Below are positions 3,744 to 63,790 of a stretch of 64,000 nt of DNA, piece by piece. The position numbers and the translations under genes are program-made. Each line of letters starts with the position of its first letter. The stretch's first letter is position 1. Below the pieces are notes generated by a model that searched no databases, was not told where the DNA came from, and was given only the letters and a program-made list of their open reading frames with translations. Source of the stretch: Patescibacteria group bacterium (lineage in GTDB: Bacteria; Patescibacteriota; Minisyncoccia; Minisyncoccales; RBG-13-36-15); NCBI GenBank assembly GCA_022574775.1, contig JACZRI010000003.1, forward strand, positions 34,308 through 98,307, written 5' to 3'.

Positions 3744-4760
3744 GTGTTTAAGGATAAGGTATACAATAAGAAGATGAAAAAGACGAGTTTGCAAAAGTTA
3801 CTACCAGGTTTAAAGAGAAATGTTTTACTAAAAAACTATACTACTTTTAAAATTGGGGGTGCCGCCCAATTTTTTTTTGTTGCGAAAAATAAAAAAGATG
3901 TAATGAAAGCAGTCCAAACGTCCAAAAAATTAAAGCTTCCATTTTTTATTCTAGGAGAGGGAAGTAATTTGTTGATATCTGATAGGGGATTTAAAGGGTT
4001 AGTTGTCAAAATACGAAATACGAAATACGAGATACCCCGCACCAGAACAAGTTCGGTGCGGGGCAGGCAAAACATTCTGGTTTATGCAGAAGCTGGGGTT
4101 TCTTTCCCTGTTTTGGTTAAGGCAACGACTGAATTGGGATTGTCTGGATTAGAGTGGGCAGGTGGATTGCCAGGTACTCTAGGTGGAGCAATAAGGGGTA
4201 ATGCAGGAGCATTTAGAGGAGAAATAAAAGATGTTATTTTGGAAGTTGAAGCTTTGGATGAAAAAGGTAATTTAAAAACATTATCTCGAAAGCAATGTAA
4301 TTTTTCTTATCGATCCTCTATTTTTAAAAAAAATAACTGGATTGTTTTATCAACTGCGCTAAAACTGGGAAAAGGAAATAAAAAATTGATTCAGTCGATT
4401 GCAAAAAGTCATATAAGATATCGAGAAGAAAAACATCCACTTGAATATCCTAATGCCGGCAGTATTTTTAAAAACTGTGACCTCAAAAAAATTCCAAAAA
4501 GACTAAGAGCCAGTTTTAATAAAGTTGTAAAGACAGATCCATTTCCATTAATACCTTCGGCCCACCTTATTTCAGAAGCTGGATTGAAAGGATTAAGAGT
4601 TGGCCAGGCAGAAGTTTCAACCAAGCACCCAAATTATATTGTTAATCTGGGTAATACTACAGCAAAAGATGTAATAAAATTAATAAATTTAGTAAAGAAA
4701 GAAGTAAAAGATAAATTTGGAATAGTATTAGAAGAGGAAATAAAACTTGTAGGGTTTTAA
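3744..4760 (+). CDS. murB: UDP-N-acetylenolpyruvoylglucosamine reductase MurB (alternative start at 3774); carries a 36 nt in-frame palindromic insertion at 4036-4071
   Basis: NYTTFKIGG and GEGSNLLISD FAD-binding motifs plus a MurB C-terminal domain. The PRTRTSSVRGRQ segment has no counterpart in reference MurB alignments. Confidence 0.8.
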   Translation: MFKDKVYNKKMKKTSLQKLLPGLKRNVLLKNYTTFKIGGAAQFFFVAKNKKDVMKAVQTSKKLKLPFFILGEGSNLLISDRGFKGLVVKIRNTKYEIPRTRTSSVRGRQNILVYAEAGVSFPVLVKATTELGLSGLEWAGGLPGTLGGAIRGNAGAFRGEIKDVILEVEALDEKGNLKTLSRKQCNFSYRSSIFKKNNWIVLSTALKLGKGNKKLIQSIAKSHIRYREEKHPLEYPNAGSIFKNCDLKKIPKRLRASFNKVVKTDPFPLIPSAHLISEAGLKGLRVGQAEVSTKHPNYIVNLGNTTAKDVIKLINLVKKEVKDKFGIVLEEEIKLVGF

Positions 4761-12556: not shown

Positions 12557-13966
12557 ATGTCAAAGAAAAACCTCTATTTTAGTCTTGCCTCTGTTCTTAT
12601 TTTGTTTTTCTTGGCTGCGAATTTAAGTTATCCAAAATATTTTAATCAAGGGGTAGATTTCATTAATTCTAAATTCCAGATTCAGGATTCAAAACTCAGA
12701 ATCCCGCATTTTCCAGAGATTCCATTCAAGTTAGGACTGGACTTGCAGGGAGGAAGCCATCTTTTATATGAGGCTGACTTGTCACAAATAGATCCCAAAG
12801 AGCAAGATTCTGCGATGGATGGTTTGAGGGATGTGATTGAAAGACGGGTCAACCTTTTTGGGGTTGCTGAACCGGTTGTTCAGATTCAGGAAGTGGGGGG
12901 GAGACTTGGGCTAATTGTAGAATTGGCAGGGATAAAAAATGTCGGAGAAGCCATTGAGATGATCGGAGAGACCCCCTATCTTGAATTTAAGGAACAGAGG
13001 TCAGAGGGTGAGACACAAAAAATCCTTGATAAACAAAAAGAAGTTGAGGGCAAGACTTCCGAAGAATTTCAACAAATTTCTGATTGGCAGTTGGCCTTTG
13101 AAGATCCTTATTTTAAAGCCACCTCTTTAACCGGGAAATACCTAGAAAAAGCAGAACTTAATTTTGACCCGACTACAAATGAACCATTAGTGTCGCTTTC
13201 CTTTGACGATGAAGGTTCAAAAATTTTTGAAGAACTGACCTCAAGAAATATCGGAAAACCTCTTCCAGTTTATGTTGATCAATTCCTAATTTCTGCCCCG
13301 GTTGTACAGGGAACTATTTCAGGCGGAAGGGCCCAAATTACAGGTAACTTTACTATTAATACGGCAAAAGAGTTAGCTAGGAATCTTAATGCGGGAGCTC
13401 TTCCGGTTCCAATTAATTTAATCTCTCAACAGACAGTAGGGCCAATTCTTGGCAAGATATCTCTGGAAAGGAGTTTGCGGGCAGGAATTTTCGGATTTTC
13501 AGCTGTTATTCTCTTTATGATTCTTTTTTATCGGTTGCCCGGAGTTTTAGCCTCTATATCCCTGCTTATTTATCTGACTTTTATTTTAGCCATTTTTAAG
13601 TTAATTCCCGTAACTTTAACTTTAGCAGGCATCGCGGGCTTAATTTTGTCAATTGGAATGGCAGTTGACGCGAATATTTTAATTTTTTCCAGAATGCGGG
13701 AAGAATTAAAAGAAGGCAAAGGTTTTTTAATCAGCGTAGAGGAAGGATTTCGAAGGGCTTGGTCTTCCATAAGAGACGGAAATTTTACCACATTAATTGT
13801 GGCTTTAATTTTATTTGGTTTTGGTACGAGTTTCGTTAAAGGATTCGCTTTAGTTTTAAGCTTGGGAGTCATTGTAAGCATGCTTTCTGCAATTTTCATT
13901 ACAAAAAATCTTCTCAAACTGTTTGTCAATACAAGGTTTGAAAAAATAAGTTGGCTGTGGAAATAA
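12557..13966 (+). CDS. secD: Protein translocase subunit SecD
   Basis: Periplasmic domain followed by a 6-TM SecD/SecF region (LDLQGGSHLLYE, GIAG..LSIGMAVDANI). Confidence 0.85.
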   Translation: MSKKNLYFSLASVLILFFLAANLSYPKYFNQGVDFINSKFQIQDSKLRIPHFPEIPFKLGLDLQGGSHLLYEADLSQIDPKEQDSAMDGLRDVIERRVNLFGVAEPVVQIQEVGGRLGLIVELAGIKNVGEAIEMIGETPYLEFKEQRSEGETQKILDKQKEVEGKTSEEFQQISDWQLAFEDPYFKATSLTGKYLEKAELNFDPTTNEPLVSLSFDDEGSKIFEELTSRNIGKPLPVYVDQFLISAPVVQGTISGGRAQITGNFTINTAKELARNLNAGALPVPINLISQQTVGPILGKISLERSLRAGIFGFSAVILFMILFYRLPGVLASISLLIYLTFILAIFKLIPVTLTLAGIAGLILSIGMAVDANILIFSRMREELKEGKGFLISVEEGFRRAWSSIRDGNFTTLIVALILFGFGTSFVKGFALVLSLGVIVSMLSAIFITKNLLKLFVNTRFEKISWLWK

Positions 13967-13976
13967 TGAACTAATT

Positions 13977-14014
13977 TTATCCTTCGATAAACTCAGGACA
14001 CTTCGACTTGCTTG
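13977..14014. repeat. GC-rich palindromic repeat, family B (core ATCCTTCGAnAAnCTCAGGACACTTCGACTT), truncated copy between secD and secF
   Basis: 37 of 40 nt identical to 25962-26001. Related copies lie at 53343 and 63676. Confidence 0.6.
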
Positions 14015-14052
14015 TAGAAATTTACAGTTTTCAGCAACAAAATACAATAATT

Positions 14053-14946
14053 ATGAATTTCATTAGATATAGAAAAATTTATTACACTTTTTCTGGAATC
14101 CTTATTGCGGCAAGTCTCTTTGCTTTGTTTTTTTTCGGAGTTAACTTAGGAATTGATTTTACTGGAGGAAGCATCCTCGAAGTAGAATTTAATAACTCAA
14201 GACCATCTAACCAGAAAGTTCAAGAAGGATTGGCGAATCTTAATCTGGGATCTATCTATTTACAGACAACAGGTGAGAAAGGATTAATCTTGAGGCTGAA
14301 AACCATTGATGAAAGCGCCCATCAAGAGCTTATAGAAAGACTGAAAGAAGAAGGAGAATTTGCAGAGAAGCGATTTGAAGTGATAGGACCTGCTATCGGT
14401 CAGGAGCTACAGCAAAAAACTAAGACTCTAATAGCCCTTTCTCTGTTAGCTATAGTTTTGTATGTTGCGCTGTCTTTCAGAAGAATTTCTCGGCCTCTTC
14501 TTTCTTGGCACTACGGGCTGGTGACAGCTTTCGTTGCGCTTTTTCACAATATTTTAATTCCTTTAGGTGTCTTTTCTGTTTTAGGCGAGTTTTTAGAAAT
14601 TCAGATAACAATCCCTATCATTGTTGGTTTATTAACCGTTTTTGGTTATTCAATCAACGATACTATCGTTGTTTTTGATAGGATAAGAGAGAATCTTTTA
14701 AGAAGGAAAGGGATAACTTATGAAGACACGGTAAATCTAAGCTTGAACCAGACCTTTACCCGTTCTCTTAATACTTCCCTAACAACATTGTTTGTTTTGA
14801 TTTCTCTCTTCTTTTTCGGTGGTGAGAGCTTAAAATACTTTGCTTTAGTGCTGATTCTTGGGGTAACATTAGGAACTTATTCTTCAATATTTATTGCGAG
14901 CCCAATCTTAGTCAGTTGGCTTAATTTTAAACAGAAGAGAGGTTGA
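14053..14946 (+). CDS. secF: Protein translocase subunit SecF
   Basis: GIDFTGGS motif and SecF TM topology immediately after secD. The track ORF starts at 14008, but the likely start is MNFIRYRK. Confidence 0.85.
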   Translation: MNFIRYRKIYYTFSGILIAASLFALFFFGVNLGIDFTGGSILEVEFNNSRPSNQKVQEGLANLNLGSIYLQTTGEKGLILRLKTIDESAHQELIERLKEEGEFAEKRFEVIGPAIGQELQQKTKTLIALSLLAIVLYVALSFRRISRPLLSWHYGLVTAFVALFHNILIPLGVFSVLGEFLEIQITIPIIVGLLTVFGYSINDTIVVFDRIRENLLRRKGITYEDTVNLSLNQTFTRSLNTSLTTLFVLISLFFFGGESLKYFALVLILGVTLGTYSSIFIASPILVSWLNFKQKRG

Positions 14947-17616: not shown

Positions 17617-19227
17617 ATGAATAAAGAAATAACACTTTTTGCAGAAACTACTTTCAGGAATTTGAGAAAGAAGTTTGGAATTAAGCTTGATGATAGAAGG
17701 AGACATGTTTATATCATAGGAAAAACCGGGATGGGAAAAACCGTGTTGCTTGAAAATATGATAATTCAAGATATTCAGCAGGGCAAAGGAGTAGGTTTTG
17801 TTGATCCTCATGGGGAGGCTGCGGAAGGATTGCTTGATTTCATTCCCTCCAACAGGATTAATGATGTAATTTATTTTAACCCTGCTGATCTGGAACATCC
17901 CATCGCTTTTAATATTATGGAGAAAGTGGATGTTGAGCATCGTCATTTGGTCGCAGGAGGATTAATGGGAGTTTTTAAAAAAATCTGGCCAGACGTCTGG
18001 TCAGCAAGAATGGAATACATTTTGAATAATTGTATTTTGGCTCTTTTGGAATACCCGGACTCAACCTTACTCGGAGTAAACCGGATGTTGGCCGATCCTG
18101 ATTATCGAAAAAAAGTCGTGGAAAAAGTTACAGATCCTATGGTAAAATCATTCTGGCTTCAAGAGTTTGCTAGGTATACTCAACGCTACGAGGTGGAGGC
18201 AACAGCTGCTATCCAGAATAAAGTCGGACAATTCATTTCAGCTCCTTTAATCAGAAATATTATTGGCCAGGTCAAGTCCACACTTGATATGAGGGATATT
18301 ATGGATAAAGGCAAAATTTTAATTTTGAATTTATCCAAAGGAAGAATAGGAGAAGATAATTCTCGGTTATTGGGGGCTCTTTTAATAACTAAATTGCAGT
18401 TAGCTGCTATGTCCCGCGTAGATGTACCAGAGGATGAGCGAAGAGATTTTTTTCTTTATGTTGATGAATTTCAGAATTACGCAACAGAGTCTTTCGTTAA
18501 TATTTTATCTGAAGCAAGGAAATATAGATTGTCCTTGATTTTGGCTCATCAGTACATTACCCAGATGGAGGAAACAGTAAGAGACGCAGTATTTGGAAAC
18601 GTGGGAACTATTATCGCTTTTCGGGTGGGAGCAGAAGATGCAGAATTTTTAGAAAAAGAATTTGTTCCTGAATTTACTGCCCAGGATCTAGTTAATTTAG
18701 CCAAATATAATATTTATTTAAAGCTGATGATTGATGGAATAGCAGGCTCTCCATTTTCTGCAGGGACTTTTCCTCCTTTTCCAAAGCTAGAGCATTCAAA
18801 TAGAGAGAAAATTATCAAGGCATCTAGGGAGAGATATGGGACGAAAAAAGAATTGGTAGAAGAGAAAATTATCAGATGGACAGGTATTGTAAACTCACTT
18901 CCACCCACTTCCGCCCAGACTGTTCTTTACGATGCAAAATGCTCACAATGCGGGAAACAGACAAAGGTTGTTTTTCCTCCAGATGGAGTGAGGCCTACTT
19001 ATTGTAAATCCTGCCGGAATAAAATGAAAAAAAGTGAGGCGCAAAGAGAGAGTGGAGAAGCTTCTATTTCTTTTAAGGAAGCCTTGAAAAAAGAACCAAC
19101 CTCTTTTTCTCCCAGAAAATTAAACAGAGAACCTTTTAAGAAAAGAAAAAACGTTAATGTAGAGGAATTAAAGAAAACATTAGATGAAATCTTAGAAAAA
19201 AGAGAAAATAAAGATTCCCAACAATGA
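17617..19227 (+). CDS. FtsK-HerA superfamily ATPase, TraD/VirD4 (type IV coupling protein)-like, with a C-terminal Cys4 zinc ribbon
   Basis: Walker A YIIGKTGMGKT within H-x-YIIG...VDPHGE context, Walker B FFLYVDEFQNY, and CSQCG...CKSCRNK. Confidence 0.55.
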   Translation: MNKEITLFAETTFRNLRKKFGIKLDDRRRHVYIIGKTGMGKTVLLENMIIQDIQQGKGVGFVDPHGEAAEGLLDFIPSNRINDVIYFNPADLEHPIAFNIMEKVDVEHRHLVAGGLMGVFKKIWPDVWSARMEYILNNCILALLEYPDSTLLGVNRMLADPDYRKKVVEKVTDPMVKSFWLQEFARYTQRYEVEATAAIQNKVGQFISAPLIRNIIGQVKSTLDMRDIMDKGKILILNLSKGRIGEDNSRLLGALLITKLQLAAMSRVDVPEDERRDFFLYVDEFQNYATESFVNILSEARKYRLSLILAHQYITQMEETVRDAVFGNVGTIIAFRVGAEDAEFLEKEFVPEFTAQDLVNLAKYNIYLKLMIDGIAGSPFSAGTFPPFPKLEHSNREKIIKASRERYGTKKELVEEKIIRWTGIVNSLPPTSAQTVLYDAKCSQCGKQTKVVFPPDGVRPTYCKSCRNKMKKSEAQRESGEASISFKEALKKEPTSFSPRKLNREPFKKRKNVNVEELKKTLDEILEKRENKDSQQ

Positions 19228-20297
19228 AGGTACTTTCAGATTTTGGTTTTGAAAATAAAAAAGTTTTGATGAGATGTGATTTTGATGTTCCCCTCGATGA
19301 AAAGGGGAATATTTTAGATGACTTTAGAATTGAACGGTCAATTCCCACAATTGTATATTTAACGAAAAAGAATGCAAAACTTATTTTAATGTGCCATCTG
19401 AAAGGATTTGGCGACGAGATAGTGAGCGTAGCTCCAATCCAGAAGAGATTAGCGGAATACCTGGATTGCCCGGTAATAAAAGCTAAAAATTGTGTTGGCA
19501 AGGAAATTGAAGACTGGATTTCGAAAATGTCTCCAGGAGATATTTTGCTCTTGGAAAATTTAAGATTTTATGCAGGCGAGAAAGAAAACGATCAGGAATT
19601 TGCCAGGAATTTGGCAAAATTAGGAGATATTTATATTAATGATGCTTTTGCTACTTGCCACAGAAAGCATGCTTCAATTGTTGGAGTGCCAAAATATCTA
19701 CCATCGGCAGCAGGGTTGGTTTTAATGGAAGAGATAAGGATATTGTCTAAGATCAGGAAAAATCCAGTAAGACCCTTAATAGCAATAATGGGGGGTACCG
19801 TTCAGGAAAAAAAAGGATTAATGTTCGTGGAAAAGATGTCACAAATCGCAGATTTTGTTTTAGTCGGCGGCCTAATTAAAAAATCAATTGAAAAAGAGAA
19901 ATTTTCTTTTACCAGTCCTCAGAAAATTATCCTTCCAGTAAAAGAAGCTATGTCTGACTTTGATTTAGGGCCAGAAACCTTGAAAATTTTTAAAGAAAAA
20001 ATTTCTCAGGCAAAAACTATCTTTTGGTCGGGACCTGTGGGGAAGATTGAAGAAGAAAGATTTTCGAAAGGAACTATGGAAATTGCCCAGGCAATTATCA
20101 GCGCTTCGGCTTTCAAAGTAGCAGGAGGGGGAGCAACAATTGATTTTCTAAGAGACCATAATTTAGCTTCCAAATTTAATCATCTTTCCACGGGAGGGGG
20201 ATCTGCATTGGCTTTTTTAGCAGGGGAGAAATTGCCAGGTATTGCCGCCCTCGAAGAGGGCGAGCCTCGCTCAGTGAAACTGAGCGGGAAGCCTTAA
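19224..20297 (+). CDS. pgk: Phosphoglycerate kinase with an atypical C-terminal extension (EEGEPRSVKLSGKP) built from two GC-rich hairpins
   Basis: RCDFDVPLDE N-terminus, GGGA..DFL, and a ...GGGSALAFLAGEKLPGIAAL C-terminus. Confidence 0.9.
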   Translation: MKVLSDFGFENKKVLMRCDFDVPLDEKGNILDDFRIERSIPTIVYLTKKNAKLILMCHLKGFGDEIVSVAPIQKRLAEYLDCPVIKAKNCVGKEIEDWISKMSPGDILLLENLRFYAGEKENDQEFARNLAKLGDIYINDAFATCHRKHASIVGVPKYLPSAAGLVLMEEIRILSKIRKNPVRPLIAIMGGTVQEKKGLMFVEKMSQIADFVLVGGLIKKSIEKEKFSFTSPQKIILPVKEAMSDFDLGPETLKIFKEKISQAKTIFWSGPVGKIEEERFSKGTMEIAQAIISASAFKVAGGGATIDFLRDHNLASKFNHLSTGGGSALAFLAGEKLPGIAALEEGEPRSVKLSGKP

Positions 20298-21598: not shown

Positions 21599-21742
21599 TA
21601 TTAGCCCCAGAACCAATCCTCACTTCGTTCGAATGGTACGGGGCAAGCATTAATTATGGTTTAACTTGTTTGGAGTTTCCTATGCCCGCCCCGTATTTCC
21701 CGACTTGTCGGGATAGTACCGGGGTATATTAGTGTCGCGTTT

Positions 21743-25477: not shown

Positions 25478-25853
25478 GATTTTTAATGTCCTAGCAAGTC
25501 TATAAGCCGAATTCTGTATTTGTGTGATCATTTGTCTGGGCCCCGATTTACATCTGAGCTCAAGCGAACTACTCTTTCACAAAAATTCTAGATAAACCCA
25601 GAATTTCTGATTTGTTCTTGCACCCAATAAGGATTTAGCCGTTTCACTCCTACATTGCTGCAGGACTACTCCGACAATAGTCGGAGTGCTCAACCTTTCG
25701 GTTTCGCGCGTCTCTGTTCGCACCTCTAGTCTTACGACCGACGGCCGTTAACCGCTATATTTTTTGACCCCGATATCTATTCGGAGAAATGGTGTTCGGA
25801 CTTTCCTCCCCCTGTCATTGCTGGCAAGGAGTAATCACCCAACTTACTAGGAC
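25478..25853 (-). ncRNA. rnpB: RNase P RNA, bacterial type A
   Basis: The minus strand reads GGGGGAGGAAAGUCCGAACACC (P4 5' strand), GGAGUGAAACGGCU and ACAGAAUUCGGCUUAUAG (P4 3' strand). P1 pairs UCCUAGUAAGU with ACUUGCUAGGA, and the region is GC-enriched. Confidence 0.8.
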
Positions 25854-25961
25854 AATTATATTGTATCGATTTAGACAAAATTTGTCAAGCTTAAGAATTC
25901 TCATTTGAAAAAGATGTCAAAAAAGATTAAAATAAGTTATTCGTGTTGATACTAGATTAAA

Positions 25962-26046
25962 GTTATCCTTCGACAAGCTCAGGACACTTCGACTTACTTG
26001 CACTGAGCGAGGCCTGAGCAGAGCGAAGGACGAGTCGAAGTGTGAC
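25962..26046. repeat. Family B palindromic repeat, full composite copy immediately upstream of and overlapping the murJ start
   Basis: CCTTCGacaaGCTCAGG...CCTGAGCagagCGAAGG and ACACTTCGACT...AGTCGAAGTGT form interleaved inverted pairs. Confidence 0.6.
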
Positions 26047-27718
26047 TTTTCACAACATTTTTAATTCTCAAACAAAGAGTATCACTTTTGCTGCTTTCTT
26101 GATTGCGATTTCTTCAGGTATTAGCGGTGTTTTGGGTTTGATTCGTGATGGATTATTGGCAGGCCGTTTTGGAGTCTGGTCAGAAACTAATTCCTATTTT
26201 GCAGCTTTTAGGGTTAATGATTTCTTCTATAACCTTTTTATTATAGGAGGATTTGCCGTGGTCTTTTTACCTCTTTTTGCCGAATATTATTCAAAAGAGA
26301 GAGAAAAGACCTGGGAGATGGTAAGTCATGTTTTAAATTTTTTTTTATTTCTGCTAATTTTAGCTTCTTTGTTTATTTTTATCTTTGCTCCCCAACTGGT
26401 GAAAATCATAACTCCAGGATTTTCCTTTGAAGAAAAGAACCAAACAGCTTTTTTAATCAGGATAATGATTTTAAGCCCGATACTATTTGGTCTGTCAGCA
26501 ATTTTCTCAGGGATTTTACACTATTTTAACCGTTTTTTCATATATTCACTTGCTCCAGTTTTATATAATCTTGGGATTATTTTCGGTATTTTGTTTCTGT
26601 CTCCATCCTTCGGTATTATCGGGGTTAGTATGGGAGTTGTTCTGGGGGCCTCACTTCATTGGGCGGTGCAGATTCCATCTGTTTTAAATTGCGGTTTTAA
26701 ATACCGCCTTCTTCTCAACTTCAGATATCCTGCTATAAAAAAGATTTTTTATTTAGTTATACCTCGGCTTTTTGCAGTAACTTCACAGCAAATAAACCTA
26801 ATCGTGATTACAGCTATTGCTTCAACTATTAGTGGGGGCATTGCTATTTTTACTTTCGCAAACAATCTTCAGCATTTTCCAATCAGTCTTGTTGCGATTC
26901 CCTTTGCCATAGCTTCTTTCCCGTCTCTTTCCAGAAACTGGGCGGCAAATCAAAAGAAAGATTTCTTGGAAAACTTCTCTTTAATTTTCAGGCAAATTCT
27001 TTTTTTTATGGTTCCTCTTACTATTTTGCTCTTTATTCTGAGAGCTCAAGTAGTCAGGTTGGTCTTGGGAACTTTAGGGGATGGTAAGTTTGACTGGGTC
27101 GCAACACAATTGATAGCCGCTTCACTTGGACTTTTCTGTTTAGGGATTATAGCTTTTGCATTTATTCCTTATTTAGCCAGAACTTTCTTTTCTTTTCAGG
27201 ACACGAAAACCCCAACTTTCATTGCCATATCCACAGTTCTGCTTAATATTACTTTAAGTTTTTTGCTGGTTTGGCTTTTGGGGTTTCAGAATGCTTTTCA
27301 AGATTTCTTGGTAAAGATCCTCAAATTAGGAGGAATAGAAAATGTCACAGTTGTCGGACTGCCTCTTGCTCTTTCCATTGCTGTGACTTTCCAATTCTTT
27401 CTTCTTTTGTTTTTTCTCTACCGGAGAATTGGTGATTTTGGCGTAAAGAAAATATTTTCTTCTTTCGCGAGAATAATTTCTGCCAGCTTTCTGGCTGGAA
27501 TTACAACCTTTTTCGTCCTCCGTTTGGCAGCTTTTTTTGTTGAGACAGACAAGGTTCTGGGATTGCTCGCCCAGACGGTTATAGCAGCTTTTTCCGGGAT
27601 TCTTATTTATTTTATCTTGACTCTCGTTTTTAAATTTCCAGAGCTGAAAATTATCGTCAAGTCTTTTAAAAAGCAATTTAGAAAAGAGGTTACACCAGTT
27701 GAAACAGAGTCCTCCTAA
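26042..27718 (+). CDS. murJ: Lipid II flippase MurJ (MviN); GTG start
   Basis: GVLGLIRDGLLAGRFG N-terminal motif and a 14-TM MOP-superfamily profile. Confidence 0.8.
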   Translation: MTFHNIFNSQTKSITFAAFLIAISSGISGVLGLIRDGLLAGRFGVWSETNSYFAAFRVNDFFYNLFIIGGFAVVFLPLFAEYYSKEREKTWEMVSHVLNFFLFLLILASLFIFIFAPQLVKIITPGFSFEEKNQTAFLIRIMILSPILFGLSAIFSGILHYFNRFFIYSLAPVLYNLGIIFGILFLSPSFGIIGVSMGVVLGASLHWAVQIPSVLNCGFKYRLLLNFRYPAIKKIFYLVIPRLFAVTSQQINLIVITAIASTISGGIAIFTFANNLQHFPISLVAIPFAIASFPSLSRNWAANQKKDFLENFSLIFRQILFFMVPLTILLFILRAQVVRLVLGTLGDGKFDWVATQLIAASLGLFCLGIIAFAFIPYLARTFFSFQDTKTPTFIAISTVLLNITLSFLLVWLLGFQNAFQDFLVKILKLGGIENVTVVGLPLALSIAVTFQFFLLLFFLYRRIGDFGVKKIFSSFARIISASFLAGITTFFVLRLAAFFVETDKVLGLLAQTVIAAFSGILIYFILTLVFKFPELKIIVKSFKKQFRKEVTPVETESS

Positions 27719-29636: not shown

Positions 29637-29845
29637 AGCGGAGCGAATTCAGGCAAGATTCGAGGCGCGAGGAGCGATGCGATGCCGAAGTGCATCGTGA
29701 GCGATGAGCAACAAAGAAGCTTGCCTGAATTCGCTCCGCCCGAAGGGAAACTGAAAAATGGCTAATTTCTTTGTTGCTCCTCCTTGAAGTAGTTTCTAAC
29801 TACTCCTTTGTCGTCGCGTCGCGAAATTACCTCATTTTTCAGTTT
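29637..29845. repeat. Interleaved long inverted repeats in the lepA/mscS convergent intergenic region
   Basis: Stem A is 21/22 bp (29637-29657 with 29719-29739). Stem B is 13 bp (29700-29712 with 29767-29779). Stem C is 14 bp (29748-29761 with 29832-29845). Small hairpins GTAGTT-tcta-AACTAC and CGATGC-cgaagt-GCATCG are also present. Confidence 0.6.
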
Positions 29846-31370: not shown

Positions 31371-31442
31371 GCCAGTGTAGCTCAGCGGCAGAGCAGGGCT
31401 TTCGTAAAGCTCAGGTCGTCGGTTCGAGTCCGACCGCTGGCT
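31371..31442 (+). tRNA. tRNA-Thr (anticodon CGT); CCA not encoded
   Basis: Acceptor GCCAGTG/CGCTGGC, D-stem GCTC/GAGC, anticodon loop TTCGTAA, T-loop TTCGAGT. Confidence 0.85.
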
Positions 31443-34330: not shown

Positions 34331-34446
34331 CTGTGGATATAATTTTAGTACGGGGTAAATAGGACTTGGTTCGCCTGCCCCGCTGTGCCTCCCCAGTAAC
34401 CTTGAGCATAGTTCGAGAGACCGAGAGGTGTTATTTACGAATTCTA

Positions 34447-34470
34447 AAATCGCCAAGAAGGCGGTTTTTT
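34447..34470 (+). terminator. Rho-independent terminator (member of a repeated terminator module)
   Basis: CGCCaagaaGGCG hairpin followed by T6. The same roughly 50 nt module recurs at 40872-40922, and its core at 46483-46508 and 44072-44128. Confidence 0.6.
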
Positions 34471-40868: not shown

Positions 40869-40895
40869 GTCTGACCGAAACGCGTTATTTACGAA

Positions 40896-40930
40896 TTCTA
40901 AAATCACCAAGAAGGCGGTTTTCTTTTATT
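40896..40930 (+). terminator. Rho-independent terminator (repeat of the 34416-34468 module)
   Basis: CACCaagaaGGCGG hairpin followed by TTTTCTTTT. The upstream 30 nt are also shared with the 34416 copy. Confidence 0.55.
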
Positions 40931-44071: not shown

Positions 44072-44128
44072 AAATCGCCAAGCCCTAAACCAGAACAAGT
44101 ACGGTTCAGGGTAAAAAGGCGGTTTTTT
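44072..44128 (+). terminator. Rho-independent terminator whose loop carries a nested 33 nt palindromic insertion (44083-44115)
   Basis: AAAATCGCCAAG[CCCTAAACC-AGAACAAGTAC-GGTTCAGGG-TAAA]AAGGCGGTTTTTTT. The flanks equal the intact terminator module found at 34447 and 46483. Confidence 0.55.
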
Positions 44129-46219: not shown

Positions 46220-46482
46220 ACAAACTCGTTTTTAACTTATAAATATTAGATTAATCATATCACGGTTTGGATTTTTACTTGAACCATATGTCATTTCACG
46301 GCAGAACCATAATGAGATATTAAGCTAGGAGTTTCGGATCAATTAATTTCTCCTTTGCATCAGCTTCGTTAAACACGATCGTTTCTCATATCATCCTAAA
46401 AACAATCCGAGAGTTGCTTGCTCTGAATTTATTGAAGGGTTGTCTCGGGCCCGACTTTTTTTATAGCTTTTAACGAGATTTA

Positions 46483-46508
46483 AAAATCGCCAAGAAGGCG
46501 GTTTTTTG
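46483..46508 (+). terminator. Rho-independent terminator (same module as 34447)
   Basis: AAAATCGCCAAGAAGGCGGTTTTTTG. Confidence 0.6.
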
Positions 46509-52877: not shown

Positions 52878-53091
52878 ATCCTTTCGGATTTGAGTACGGG
52901 GCTAGAATACGAAATACATACGTTATTTTACAAGATGCTCGCCCCGTACCATGCGAACGCAGTGAGAATTGGTACTGGGGCAACCTCCAAAGAAAAAATA
53001 TAATGTTATCGCTCGCTCGGCGCCGGTAAGCCGTAGCTCGCGATATTTGTTCGAGACCTTTTTAAAAAAAGGTTCTCGAGCTCTCAAAATT

Positions 53092-54453
53092 ATGAAAAAG
53101 GTTCATTTCATTGGCATTGGAGGAATTGGGGTTTCTGCATTGGCCAGATTTTATTTGAAAAATGGGTGGGAAGTTTCAGGTTCTGATTTGGAAAGTTCAG
53201 AAACCATAACGGCGCTGGAAAAATTAGGAGTTAAAATTTTTGTCGGCAAACATAAAGTTAAAAACTTGAATCCTCAAGCTGATTTGGTTATTTACAGCCC
53301 AGCCATTAAATCGGACAATCCAGAGTTGCTGAAAGCTAAAAGCTATCCTTCGGCAAGCTCAGGATCCCGAGCAGCGTCGAGGGGTAAGTTGGAAGCTATC
53401 TCTTATCCTCAAGCTTTAGGCCAATTAACAAAGAAATATTTTACCATTGCTGTCTCTGGGACGCACGGAAAAAGCACAACCGTAGCCATGATTAGCCTGA
53501 TTTTAATAAAAGCAGGACTTGACCCAACTGTAATTTTAGGAACAAAACTTAAGGAATTCGGCAACAGCAATTTTCGAATGGGCAGCAAACTGCCAACTAC
53601 TAAATATAAACTGCCTTTTCTGGTGATTGAGGCTGATGAATGGGGAGCATCTTTTTTGTATTTTTGGCCAAAGATTATTGTTTTGACCAACATTGAGAAA
53701 GAACACCTCGATTATTATAAAAACTTAAACCATATTTTGAAAACTTATAAAAAATATATTTCCCATTTGCCAAAAACCGGCGTTTTGATAGCAAATAGAG
53801 ATGACCAAAATATAAAAAAAATTATAAGAAAAGAAAAAACGTCATTTTATTCTCTAAGCGATACGGAAGCAAAGAAATTAAAAAATATTTTGGAAGTTCC
53901 GGGAGTTCACAATATTTCTAATGCTCAAAGCGCCTTGACAACTGCCAGAGTTCTAAAAATCCCAGATAGGATCTCTTTTAAAGCTCTTTCAGAATATAAA
54001 GGAGCCTGGCGACGGTTTGAGATTTTTACTAAATATCTAGCAGCTCGGCCCTATACCTTAATTTCAGATTATGCTCATCATCCAACAGAGATAAAAGCTA
54101 CCCTTCAAGCCGCCAGAGAAAAATTTAAGGGAAGAAAAATATGGGCTGTTTTCCAGCCCCATCAATATCAAAGAACATATTATTTTTTTAAAGATTTCGT
54201 TAGAGCTTTTGATTTGGCAGACGAAATTATCTTAACTGAAATTTATCAGGTTACAGGAAGAGAGGAAAGAAAAATTTTAAGAAAAGTCAGCGCTAGAAAA
54301 TTAGCAGTAGATATTAGAAAAAGAAGGAAAAAAGTCCACTTTGTTAAAGATTTTGAGAAAATCCCAAAATTTATTAAAACAAGAGTCAAAGGAAAAGATG
54401 TTGTTTTAGTAATGGGAGCAGGAGACATTTATAAGATAATCGACTTTTTATAA
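53092..54453 (+). CDS. murC: UDP-N-acetylmuramate--L-alanine ligase MurC; carries an in-frame GC palindromic insertion at about 53343-53384 (SASSGSRAASRGK)
   Basis: IHFIGIGGIGVSALA, GTHGKSTT, and the Mur ligase middle and C-terminal domains. The track ORF extends upstream to 52969, but the likely start is MKKVHFIG. Confidence 0.8.
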   Translation: MKKVHFIGIGGIGVSALARFYLKNGWEVSGSDLESSETITALEKLGVKIFVGKHKVKNLNPQADLVIYSPAIKSDNPELLKAKSYPSASSGSRAASRGKLEAISYPQALGQLTKKYFTIAVSGTHGKSTTVAMISLILIKAGLDPTVILGTKLKEFGNSNFRMGSKLPTTKYKLPFLVIEADEWGASFLYFWPKIIVLTNIEKEHLDYYKNLNHILKTYKKYISHLPKTGVLIANRDDQNIKKIIRKEKTSFYSLSDTEAKKLKNILEVPGVHNISNAQSALTTARVLKIPDRISFKALSEYKGAWRRFEIFTKYLAARPYTLISDYAHHPTEIKATLQAAREKFKGRKIWAVFQPHQYQRTYYFFKDFVRAFDLADEIILTEIYQVTGREERKILRKVSARKLAVDIRKRRKKVHFVKDFEKIPKFIKTRVKGKDVVLVMGAGDIYKIIDFL

Positions 54454-63675: not shown

Positions 63676-63790
63676 GATCCTTCAACAAAGTTCAGGGTCG
63701 CCCTGAGTTAAATCGAAGGGCGATAAACTCAGGGTAACCCTGAGTCCTTCGGTCCTGAATTCAGGGTTGAAGGATAAAGTCGAAGGATTT
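63676..63790. repeat. Cluster of degenerate family B palindromic repeats (CCTTCg/CGAAGG and CTCAGGG/CCCTGAG arms)
   Basis: Several hairpins, for example CCTTCaacaaaGTTCAGGG-tcg-CCCTGAGttaaatCGAAGG and ACTCAGGG-taa-CCCTGAGT. Confidence 0.55.

Follow-up and report, generated by a model that had tools for sequence, protein, structure and literature searches.

What is the origin of the palindromic element of 85 nucleotides (nt) that contains the start codon of murJ in a 64,000-nt stretch of DNA from a Patescibacteria group bacterium, and how did the gene come to start within it? The whole of this stretch is referred to below as the window. It has a GC content of 32-42%, and the homologues of its MurJ carry the labels Patescibacteria group or Candidatus Nealsonbacteria. 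A first-pass annotation, made from the letters of the window, had described the element as a composite repeat abutting the murJ start, had noted a truncated copy between secD and secF, and had likened the repeat to repetitive extragenic palindromic (REP) sequences or to MITEs, the miniature transposable elements with inverted repeats. In the present analysis, the element was found to be a mosaic in which a hairpin unit of about 27 nt is present four times, as whole or half copies. We regard it as rather probable that this mosaic is REP-like and probably mobile DNA, that it was co-opted as a leader bearing a start codon, and that it was copied from the leader of metK to murJ. The arrangement of the mosaic is as follows.

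25963-26046, plus strand: composite (mosaic) element, forming the 3' part of the murJ 5' leader through the GTG and 2 nt of codon 2
25966-25984, plus strand: U1, canonical unit with the stem TCCT/AGGA and the loop TCGACAAGCTC (25970-25980), an exact match to the cross-phylum consensus
25985-26000, plus strand: U2, half unit CACT-TCGAC..., carrying arm B (25984-25994)
26001-26042, plus strand: U3, inverted unit with the stem CACT/AGTG, its loop GAGC...GTCGA expanded by a nested unit and its 3' stem being arm B'
26013-26029, plus strand: U4, inverted unit nested in the loop of U3, CCT-GAGCAGAGCGA-AGG, which is arm A'
26042-27718, plus strand: murJ coding sequence, with the GTG start at 26042-26044

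The two inverted-repeat pairs described in the first-pass annotation are present. Arm A (CCTTCGacaaGCTCAGG, 25967-25983) is complementary to arm A' (CCTGAGCagagCGAAGG, 26013-26029), and arm B (ACACTTCGACT) has a perfect 11-nt complement in B' (26033-26043); the complement of arm B has three matches in the window versus 0.37 expected. The order of the arms, A-B-A'-B', is interleaved, and the arms are the stems of the hairpin units of the mosaic. Each unit consists of a variable stem of 5 bp, a loop of 11 nt that is invariant, and a GA(C) tail at the 3' end. The covariance model of the unit matched U1 at 25962-25988 (29.7 bits, E = 7e-6), and an nhmmer search with a profile of five mosaic copies gave 98 bits at 25958-26051. 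The stem type ACACT/AGTGT with the tail GAC, as in U2, occurs also in unrelated genomes. U4 holds an in-frame stop codon, TGA (26015-26017), and part of a Shine-Dalgarno (SD)-like motif, GAAGGA (26025-26030). The 3' end of the element, AGTGT-GAC, is a standard 3' stem and tail, which spans the GTG start and the AC of codon 2. In the window the covariance model found three significant copies, all on the plus strand (25962, 13976 and 53342; E = 7e-6 to 2e-3), and it found three copies in 98 kb of relatives.

The GTG is the sole usable start of murJ, because the in-frame TGA in U4 is followed by no ATG, GTG or TTG before 26042. In addition, about 40 MurJ homologues start at the same residue, M(N/T)FxxIFNSQTK. 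The GTG lies in the last arm, B', as had been proposed. In the relatives L004, L005, L218 and L229, murJ lacks the element and begins with ATG AAT TTT. Only in the window and in the 93% identical relative L003 is the mosaic found at murJ, and there ATG-AAT is changed to GTG-ACT; the L003 copy has a further insertion of 33 nt nested within U1. The starts of 44 window genes were inspected, of which 42 were correctly read: murJ has GTG and the other 41 have ATG.

The same change of start codon accompanies the mosaic at a second gene, metK. In the relatives the gene arrangement, read as ancestral, is secA-secD-metK-secF...rnpB-murJ. The metK gene is present between secD and secF in L218 and L229-L234, and is missing there in the window (13967-14052) and in L005 (1496-1498). 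In L218, L229 and L230 the mosaic fills the spacer between secD and metK and ends in the GTG start of metK. The metK leader of L218, for example, has a mosaic with an extra nested hairpin, whose end reads ...CGAAGGACAAGTTGAAGT-GTG-AAA AAT TTT. This GTG can be taken as the metK start because about 50 MetK homologues begin with MKNFLFTSES. In the relatives without the mosaic (L231, L232, L233 and L234), the metK leaders hold other sequences and metK starts with ATG. Thus, among the relatives compared, both murJ and metK have GTG where the element is present and ATG where it is absent. The presence of ATG and the absence of the mosaic in L233 mean that leader alleles vary even among close relatives. 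It should be added that the MetK protein entries P0241, P0242, P0253, P0254 and P0256 are called at an internal ATG (372 versus 382 aa). For P0241 (98% identical to the MetK of L218) and P0242 (L230), the DNA places the true start at the GTG inside the mosaic; for P0256 (L231/L232), an ATG is found at the upstream position, with no mosaic. The secD-metK spacers of L231 (about 290-476) and L232 (about 290-465) contain a different GC-rich palindromic mosaic of about 190 nt. Therefore, the metK leader seems to be a recurrent site of repeat landing or exchange.

This arrangement in the relatives accounts for the second copy in the window, which lies where metK is missing.

12557-13966: secD, 94.7% identical to the gene of the relative L233, which has SecD Pfam matches
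13977-14014, plus strand: remnant of the metK-leader mosaic (U1 and half of U2), 24.7 bits with the covariance model
14015-14052, plus strand: what remains of the stop codon of metK (TAG, 14015-14017) and of the spacer between metK and secF, aligned by eye with L233 5140-5187, ...tatttgTAGaaatttgcagctttcagc...
14053-14946: secF, its first 11 residues being those of the relative's SecF (gene with Sec_GG/SecD_SecF_C Pfam matches)

The recurrence reported in the first-pass annotation is real: the first 37-38 nt of the element recur at about 13977-14014 with three mismatches, and no such match was obtained in 100 shuffles. However, this copy is not an independent truncated insertion, as had been thought. 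Directly behind the 38-nt copy the window reads TAGAAATTTACAGTTTTCAGC..., which can be aligned in L233 with the stop codon of metK and the spacer between metK and secF; the deletion junction lies at a TTG microhomology. From this alignment, a deletion between two TTG microhomologies took the 3' half of the mosaic and the whole of metK. The secD-secF copy is the scar of the metK deletion, that is, what is left of the metK leader.

Five homologous full copies of the mosaic were thus obtained: those of the window and L003 at murJ, and those of L218, L229 and L230 at metK, with E <= 1e-24 for the copies in other genomes. The copies are 80-94% identical between genomes. The murJ copy of the window and the metK copy of L229 are 91.5% identical, whereas the RNase P RNAs of the same two genomes are 79% and their SecD proteins 71% identical. 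The third codon positions of metK in L218, L229 and L230 are 53-57% identical. A non-coding leader is therefore more conserved than an essential ribozyme, and recent copying, transfer or homogenisation fits better than vertical descent under constraint. To judge from these identities, the mosaic copies appear to have been spread or homogenised rather than vertically inherited. The absence of the element at metK in L233, the closest relative, points the same way. As a whole, the mosaic is specific to this lineage of Patescibacteria. Strings specific to the mosaic had no match in viral contigs, and a metagenome scan for the mosaic-specific junction gave no match, though L003, which matches the pattern, is itself a contig from a Joint Genome Institute (JGI) metagenome. 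A MurJ-based metagenome scan gave 11 loci.

The distribution of the single unit is much wider than that of the mosaic. One genome per GTDB species (596 Gb) was scanned with the pattern TATCCTTCGNNAANCTCAGGA, which has 18 fixed bases. At least 120 genome stretches contained the unit pattern, against about 17 expected by chance. Among the matches listed, more than 15 phyla are represented, isolates included; these matches come from Chloroflexota, Bacteroidota, Alpha-, Gamma- and Deltaproteobacteria, Patescibacteria, Dependentiae, Omnitrophota, Cloacimonadota, Leptospiraceae, Nitrospirota and others. Copies beyond the window therefore exist both for the unit and, in the four relatives named above, for the mosaic. 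The three free positions of the scan are A, C and G in 85-89% of the matches listed, so that the cross-phylum consensus is exactly the murJ copy. The exact 19-mer was also found in 90 IMG/VR viral contigs.

The stems of the unit covary. The sequence TCGAYARRCTC is directly flanked by varied complementary stems (CCT/AGG, GGT/ACC, GCT/AGC, TCT/AGA, ACT/AGT and GTT/AAC). In a sample of 140 bystander units, which had not been selected for by the scans, 81.9% of the stem cells were paired versus 60.1% in shuffles. The covariation score was 0.59 versus 0.22, a value reached in none of 500 shuffles, and controls with slid positions gave 0.14 or less. All five stem pairs vary on both sides. The 3' tail GA(C/G/A) is conserved without a pairing partner, the bases of the other flank are not conserved, and many stems start with AT. 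Dimers and mosaics of the unit occur in the window and in other genomes. The unit is thus a cross-phylum family with covarying stems.

Several other origins of the motif were considered and discarded. An adapter or assembly artefact is ruled out by identical sequences in independent assemblies and in isolate genomes. A similarity of GCTCAGGATGAACG to the 5' end of 16S rRNA was dropped, as the flank differs between copies. The anticodon arm and variable loop of tRNA-Thr(CGU) at 31399-31415 differ from the core by three of 17 positions; the unit cannot fold as an anticodon arm, and this similarity was judged a coincidence. Clustering of the open reading frames (ORFs) at about 210 motif-bearing loci, in search of a co-occurring gene, was dominated by high-GC shadow ORFs and related prophages.

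Copies of the unit are not confined to leaders. Two further sites in the window had been missed in the first-pass annotation.

53347-53385, plus strand: in-frame 39-nt hairpin copy (unit and partial inverted unit) in murC, encoding PSASSGSRAASRG, 21.2 bits with the covariance model
63697-63724, minus strand: weak inverted unit CCCT-GAGTTAAATCGA-AGGG, 14.8 bits with the covariance model, E = 0.1

The murC copy was first met in a repeat search with the left arm; murC starts at about 53092, and the copy is translated in frame. Alignment to solved MurC structures and to 40 close homologues showed a clean insert of 13 codons, which carries no terminal tag. The insert is shared by the window and two relatives (93% and 86% identity) and is absent in 37 of the 40 homologues. 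In L216, the 86% relative, this murC site is occupied by another hairpin, likewise of 39 nt, and further relatives have inserts of the KLQTTNYKLQ type there. The variety of inserts at this one site marks the MurC loop as a hot spot at which repeats are inserted. An 8-nt direct repeat, AAGCTATC, together with a TA...TA flank had suggested a target-site duplication at murC; this was refuted by the homologues, which show an exact 39-nt insert and no duplication. The weak inverted unit belongs to a degenerate cluster of unit halves at 63690-63790, whose fold has a z score of -5.5.

In other genomes, typA/bipA (L063, L076, L104 and L113), recA (L112), a P-type ATPase gene (L117) and other long ORFs contain single in-frame units of about 24 nt. 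The typA unit occupies the same position in four Parcubacteria species, …AKNTAIF-YPSASSGR-AVTKINIVDTPGH. A structural RNA gene also contains a canonical unit: in L229, it lies within the RNase P RNA (19202-19612, minus strand), in the region P15-P17. The RNase P RNA of L004 (about 765-1300) contains about 170 nt of extra GC-rich hairpins with a related loop, T(C/A)CGCTAAAGCT(A/T)C.

The effect of the element on murJ depends on its place in the transcript. The region upstream of it contains the following features.

25487-25850, minus strand: RNase P RNA gene (rnpB), class A, divergent from murJ
Within the 191-nt rnpB-murJ spacer, divergent from murJ: promoter-like site for rnpB, TTGACA-17-TACAAT
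25905-25933, plus strand: promoter-like site for murJ, TTGAAA-17-TAAAAT, 10 of 12 consensus matches

The spacer thus holds two divergent promoter-like sites. The site for murJ is kept in L003, L004 and L005, as compared by eye. Since this site precedes the element, the element would be part of the murJ 5' leader, as judged from the consensus match. Folded as RNA, the 85 nt gave -30.8 kcal/mol (z = -2.7 versus shuffles), and this held for either strand. A long A/A' hairpin of about -30 kcal/mol is predicted for every mosaic-bearing leader. In the predicted fold, 26024-26030 pairs with 25966-25972, so that the SD-like GAAGGA is paired with UCCUUC; the GUG lies 12 nt beyond.

The proposal that the repeat supplies or occludes the initiation region is borne out in one part. 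The correlation of GTG with the element and of ATG with its absence, together with the predicted GAAGGA-UCCUUC pairing, speaks for supply, and it is most likely that the element supplies the initiation region of murJ. The role of the SD-like motif is uncertain, as SD-like tetramers are found upstream of genes in the window at the background rate (8 of 44 versus 20%). Most gene leaders in the window are AT-rich. Given such leaders and background SD-like tetramers, a GC-rich hairpin followed by a GTG should lower initiation. On the predicted fold, then, the hairpin and the weak GTG of the murJ leader should lower or reshape translation initiation. In many window genes a TAxAAT box was observed 5-10 nt before the ATG, which suggests leaderless transcripts or very short leaders.

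These observations can be joined in the following scheme. The units may spread in a copy-and-paste fashion, acting in trans; spread in trans is proposed because no transposase lies nearby. The DNA was probably selfish or near-neutral, and would then have been co-opted as a start-codon cassette. The cassette of the metK leader may have been copied to murJ by gene conversion or by template switching at the microhomologies TTAT and TGA. In this step, the murJ copy would have overwritten the native leader instead of inserting into it. A far-reaching extension of this scheme, which we put forward only tentatively and hold to be less likely than the scheme itself, is that the 24-27-nt hairpin with the loop TCGACAAGCTC is an unrecognised, pan-bacterial kind of mobile DNA of very small size. 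A conserved machinery acting in trans would spread this DNA and keep it uniform, and the DNA would be able to enter essential genes in frame as well as structural RNA genes. The mosaic described here would then be a portable start cassette that overwrites leaders (ATG to GTG) and is passed on from gene to gene and from one related genome to another.

Several points weigh against a co-opted mobile mosaic. A selected function could be the reason why the mosaic is so strongly conserved in the leader of metK. The copy number is low and unlike that of classical REPs: 3-4 units were found in 64 kb and three in the 98 kb from relatives, and each genome fragment has a single mosaic. Neither a transposition intermediate, nor a target duplication, nor a mobilising gene was found in the window ORFs, at the murC site or in the relatives. 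The SD-like motifs are not enriched in the window, so that the "supplied SD" may be irrelevant. Finally, 96% of the proposed pairs are kept over the five mosaic copies, a value that reflects sequence conservation, and the changes in these pairs comprise one compensatory change (G-C to A-U, in L218), five G.U and five A.C. Equal numbers of G.U and A.C indicate neither the RNA nor the DNA as the level of action. Wobble pairs had been considered as a guide to the strand of action; they proved uninformative, the two types of change being balanced in the unit family as well as in the mosaic.

The first of these points leads to the alternative that the mosaic is a dedicated cis-regulatory leader RNA of metK. 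It could be a translational operator, a thermosensor or a new riboswitch, responsive for example to S-adenosylmethionine (SAM), which hides the ribosome-binding region in a hairpin or an H-type pseudoknot and was duplicated to murJ by accident. In agreement with this, the mosaic occupies the metK leader of at least three divergent genomes and left a remnant in the window, its conservation is far higher than that of synonymous sites, all predicted folds have the SD-like GAAGGA in a paired state, and the compensatory change in L218 preserves a pair. The SAM-II/V and SAM/SAH (S-adenosylhomocysteine) riboswitches have an interleaved-arm topology, and the arms of the mosaic match it. However, no Rfam family was matched, whether SAM-I to VI, SAM/SAH, SMK or any other cis-regulator model, in searches of the window at 25900-26100 (E <= 10) and of the metK loci of L230, L231 and L232 (E <= 1). 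The mosaic is absent from the metK leaders of L231, L232, L233 and L234, and it is built from a generic unit that occurs also in coding regions and in other phyla. Its conservation exceeds that of RNase P RNA, which points to transfer over constraint. The pseudoknot arm B/B' has unrepaired mismatches in L003 and L218, the G.U and A.C changes number five each, and murJ has no connection to SAM. A leader RNA of this kind is therefore considered unlikely.

A host function of the REP type is still less likely. In this case the element would serve as a 3' stabiliser or processing barrier for secD, or as a site for a nucleoid or topology protein, and its overlap with the start codon would be incidental. 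Roles of REPs in mRNA stability and supercoiling have been summarised (PMC3733652), and in the relatives the element lies directly after the secD stop codon within the operon, as REPs do, with stable hairpins on both strands. Against such a role, murJ has no upstream cistron on the same strand, rnpB being divergent. Moreover, the GTG/ATG correlation at two genes shows that the overlap is not incidental, and there are too few copies to give the element an architectural role throughout the genome. As for chance, which would make the arms and the second copy GC-rich palindromes that arose at random and separately, the window does have many GC-rich islands, and six-letter words taken from the element show no over-representation in it. 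This explanation is refuted by the shuffles (none in 100 against a 37-nt match with three mismatches), by the covariance-model matches (E = 7e-6 to 2e-3) and by the five homologous full copies (E <= 1e-24), and its probability is negligible. A co-opted, REP-like mosaic copied from metK to murJ is thus retained as the preferred reading.

Other repeats were observed in the window. A 47-nt repeat occurs at 21604-21650 and 52935-52981 in opposite orientations with 89% complementarity; one copy follows a DHH-family gene, the other lies just upstream of murC, and each is itself a GC-rich hairpin. Downstream of lepA, at 29638-29754, there is a near-perfect GC-rich palindrome of 117 nt (GCGGAGCGAATTCAGGCAAG...CTTGCCTGAATTCGCTCCGC). 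A second hairpin family, at 4031-4063 and 44080-44111, has a conserved 13-nt loop, CAGAACAAGT(T/A)CG, and differing complementary stems, CCCCGCAC/GTGCGGGG versus CCCTAAAC/GTTCAGGG. A family of three copies (34419-34468, 40873-40922 and 46456-46505) has at its 3' end a terminator-like hairpin, AAAATCGCCAAGAAGGCGGTTTT, which is preceded by GTTATTTACGAATTCTAAAATC in two of the three copies. Words of the form TACGAAT/ATTCGTA are met again in leaders that lack the element, which they fill in L004 (murJ) and in L233 (metK).

If the preferred reading is correct, even genomes of about 1 Mb in the candidate phyla radiation carry active or recently active palindromic repeats, by which leaders and start codons are changed and essential enzymes of the cell wall are given extra peptide loops. 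This would account both for a rare GTG start and for the scar of a gene loss. Annotators would gain a model for spotting repeat-derived inserts and mis-called starts; several metK entries are 10 codons short. A hairpin of 27 nt whose loop is invariant occurs in phage contigs as well as in more than 15 phyla, which raises the question of how such tiny elements spread and stay uniform.

It remains to compare the element with known repeat systems. MITEs are 70-300 bp in length, with terminal inverted repeats that match an insertion sequence (IS) and with target duplications. The MITEs that alter the expression of neighbours (Correia, ERIC and RUP) resemble the element in being small non-coding repeats beside genes which join transcripts or control regions. 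Here, no terminal inverted repeats linked to a transposase, target duplication or IS were found, the units are 24-27 nt in length, the murJ copy replaces sequence, and the murC insert is exactly 39 nt. Of the REP/MITE-like character that had been proposed, the composite palindromic repeat is therefore kept and the MITE is not.

The small dispersed repeats (SDRs) of heterocystous cyanobacteria, which Elhai and co-workers are said to have described in 2008, reportedly have units of 21-27 nt, a non-coding size, and form a hairpin with compensatory changes. Nested insertions and differences in presence or absence between close relatives are also reported for them. By description, the present unit is similar: it is 24-27 nt in length with covarying stems, it shows nested insertions (L003 and L218), and it is present or absent among relatives. 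To our knowledge, SDRs have been described only in cyanobacteria and are not known across phyla, whereas the present unit is shared across phyla.

An annotated relative of the unit may be seen in Rfam. No Rfam family reached its threshold for the unit, and RF02901 (AaHKsRNA41, Aggregatibacter sRNA 41) is the sole Rfam consensus with the motif, which it holds as an inverted pair, GCUGAgCUUGcCGAAGC ... UUCGgCAAGcUCAgC. Thus at least one copy elsewhere has been annotated as a transcribed small RNA (sRNA). RF02901 had no match in the window, and its matches of 31-36 bits, against a gathering threshold of 97 bits, were found only in repeat dimers of other genomes.

REP doublets forming hairpins (REPINs) are inverted doublets of a short palindromic unit and have been proposed to be non-autonomous mobile DNA mobilised by REP-associated tyrosine transposases (RAYTs) (Bertels & Rainey 2011, PMC3116915). 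The element shares with them the inverted doublets of a short palindromic unit that can form a long hairpin. It differs in having no GTAG head and in its copy number, which in the DNA covered is tens at most and not hundreds. In addition, no RAYT/IS200-like gene, transposase or recombinase was found in a Pfam scan of 30 window ORFs, in the Pfam tables for 16-38 kb of the window and for the relatives, or in the fetched flanks.

Palindromic repeats of reduced, AT-rich genomes are already known from Rickettsia, as Rickettsia palindromic elements (RPEs), and from Wolbachia (PMC3733652), so that the statement that such elements are not generally reported in genomes of this type was too strong. As in those cases, the host genome here is reduced and AT-rich, and the repeats are found at N-termini and, in frame, within genes for essential proteins. 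In-frame insertion into functional protein genes, the mark of RPEs, was found in murC (13 codons) in the window and in typA, recA and the P-type ATPase gene elsewhere. The differences, by description and not by sequence, are the other host phylum, the shorter inserts of 24-39 nt and the donation of a start codon.

The closest comparison is with REPs, their mosaics (bacterial interspersed mosaic elements, BIMEs) and the CGTC-tagged superfamily. The latter is found in several phyla, has no known dedicated transposase, and has intragenic copies, often within genes for replication or repair (Di Nocera et al. 2013, PMC3733652); RPE-4 and RPE-6 of Rickettsia are CGTC REPs (PMC3733652). Likewise, the present hairpin units are short and occur singly, as inverted dimers and as mosaics, in several phyla and with in-frame intragenic copies. 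The 27-nt unit is a short repeated stem-loop of the 20-40 bp that characterise REPs, often in inverted dimers or mosaics. The unpaired 3' tail of the unit, GAC/GAG/GAA, reads GTC/CTC/TTC on the other strand, which is near CGTC/TGTC/CCTC, and U1 reads TGTC-CT there; the murC copy has no such tag. The described CGTC families (1-4), however, have stems of 8-9 bp, loops of 4-5 nt and a CCA tail (PMC3733652), whereas the unit has a stem of 5 bp, the invariant 11-nt loop, no CCA tail and, in the window and its relatives, a low copy number. The motif strings of the unit are absent from that paper and its supplements and from every paper of the searchable literature, where no description of the unit was found either. 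The unit is thus distinct from the described CGTC REP families, and is taken to represent a new form of REP-like palindromic DNA.

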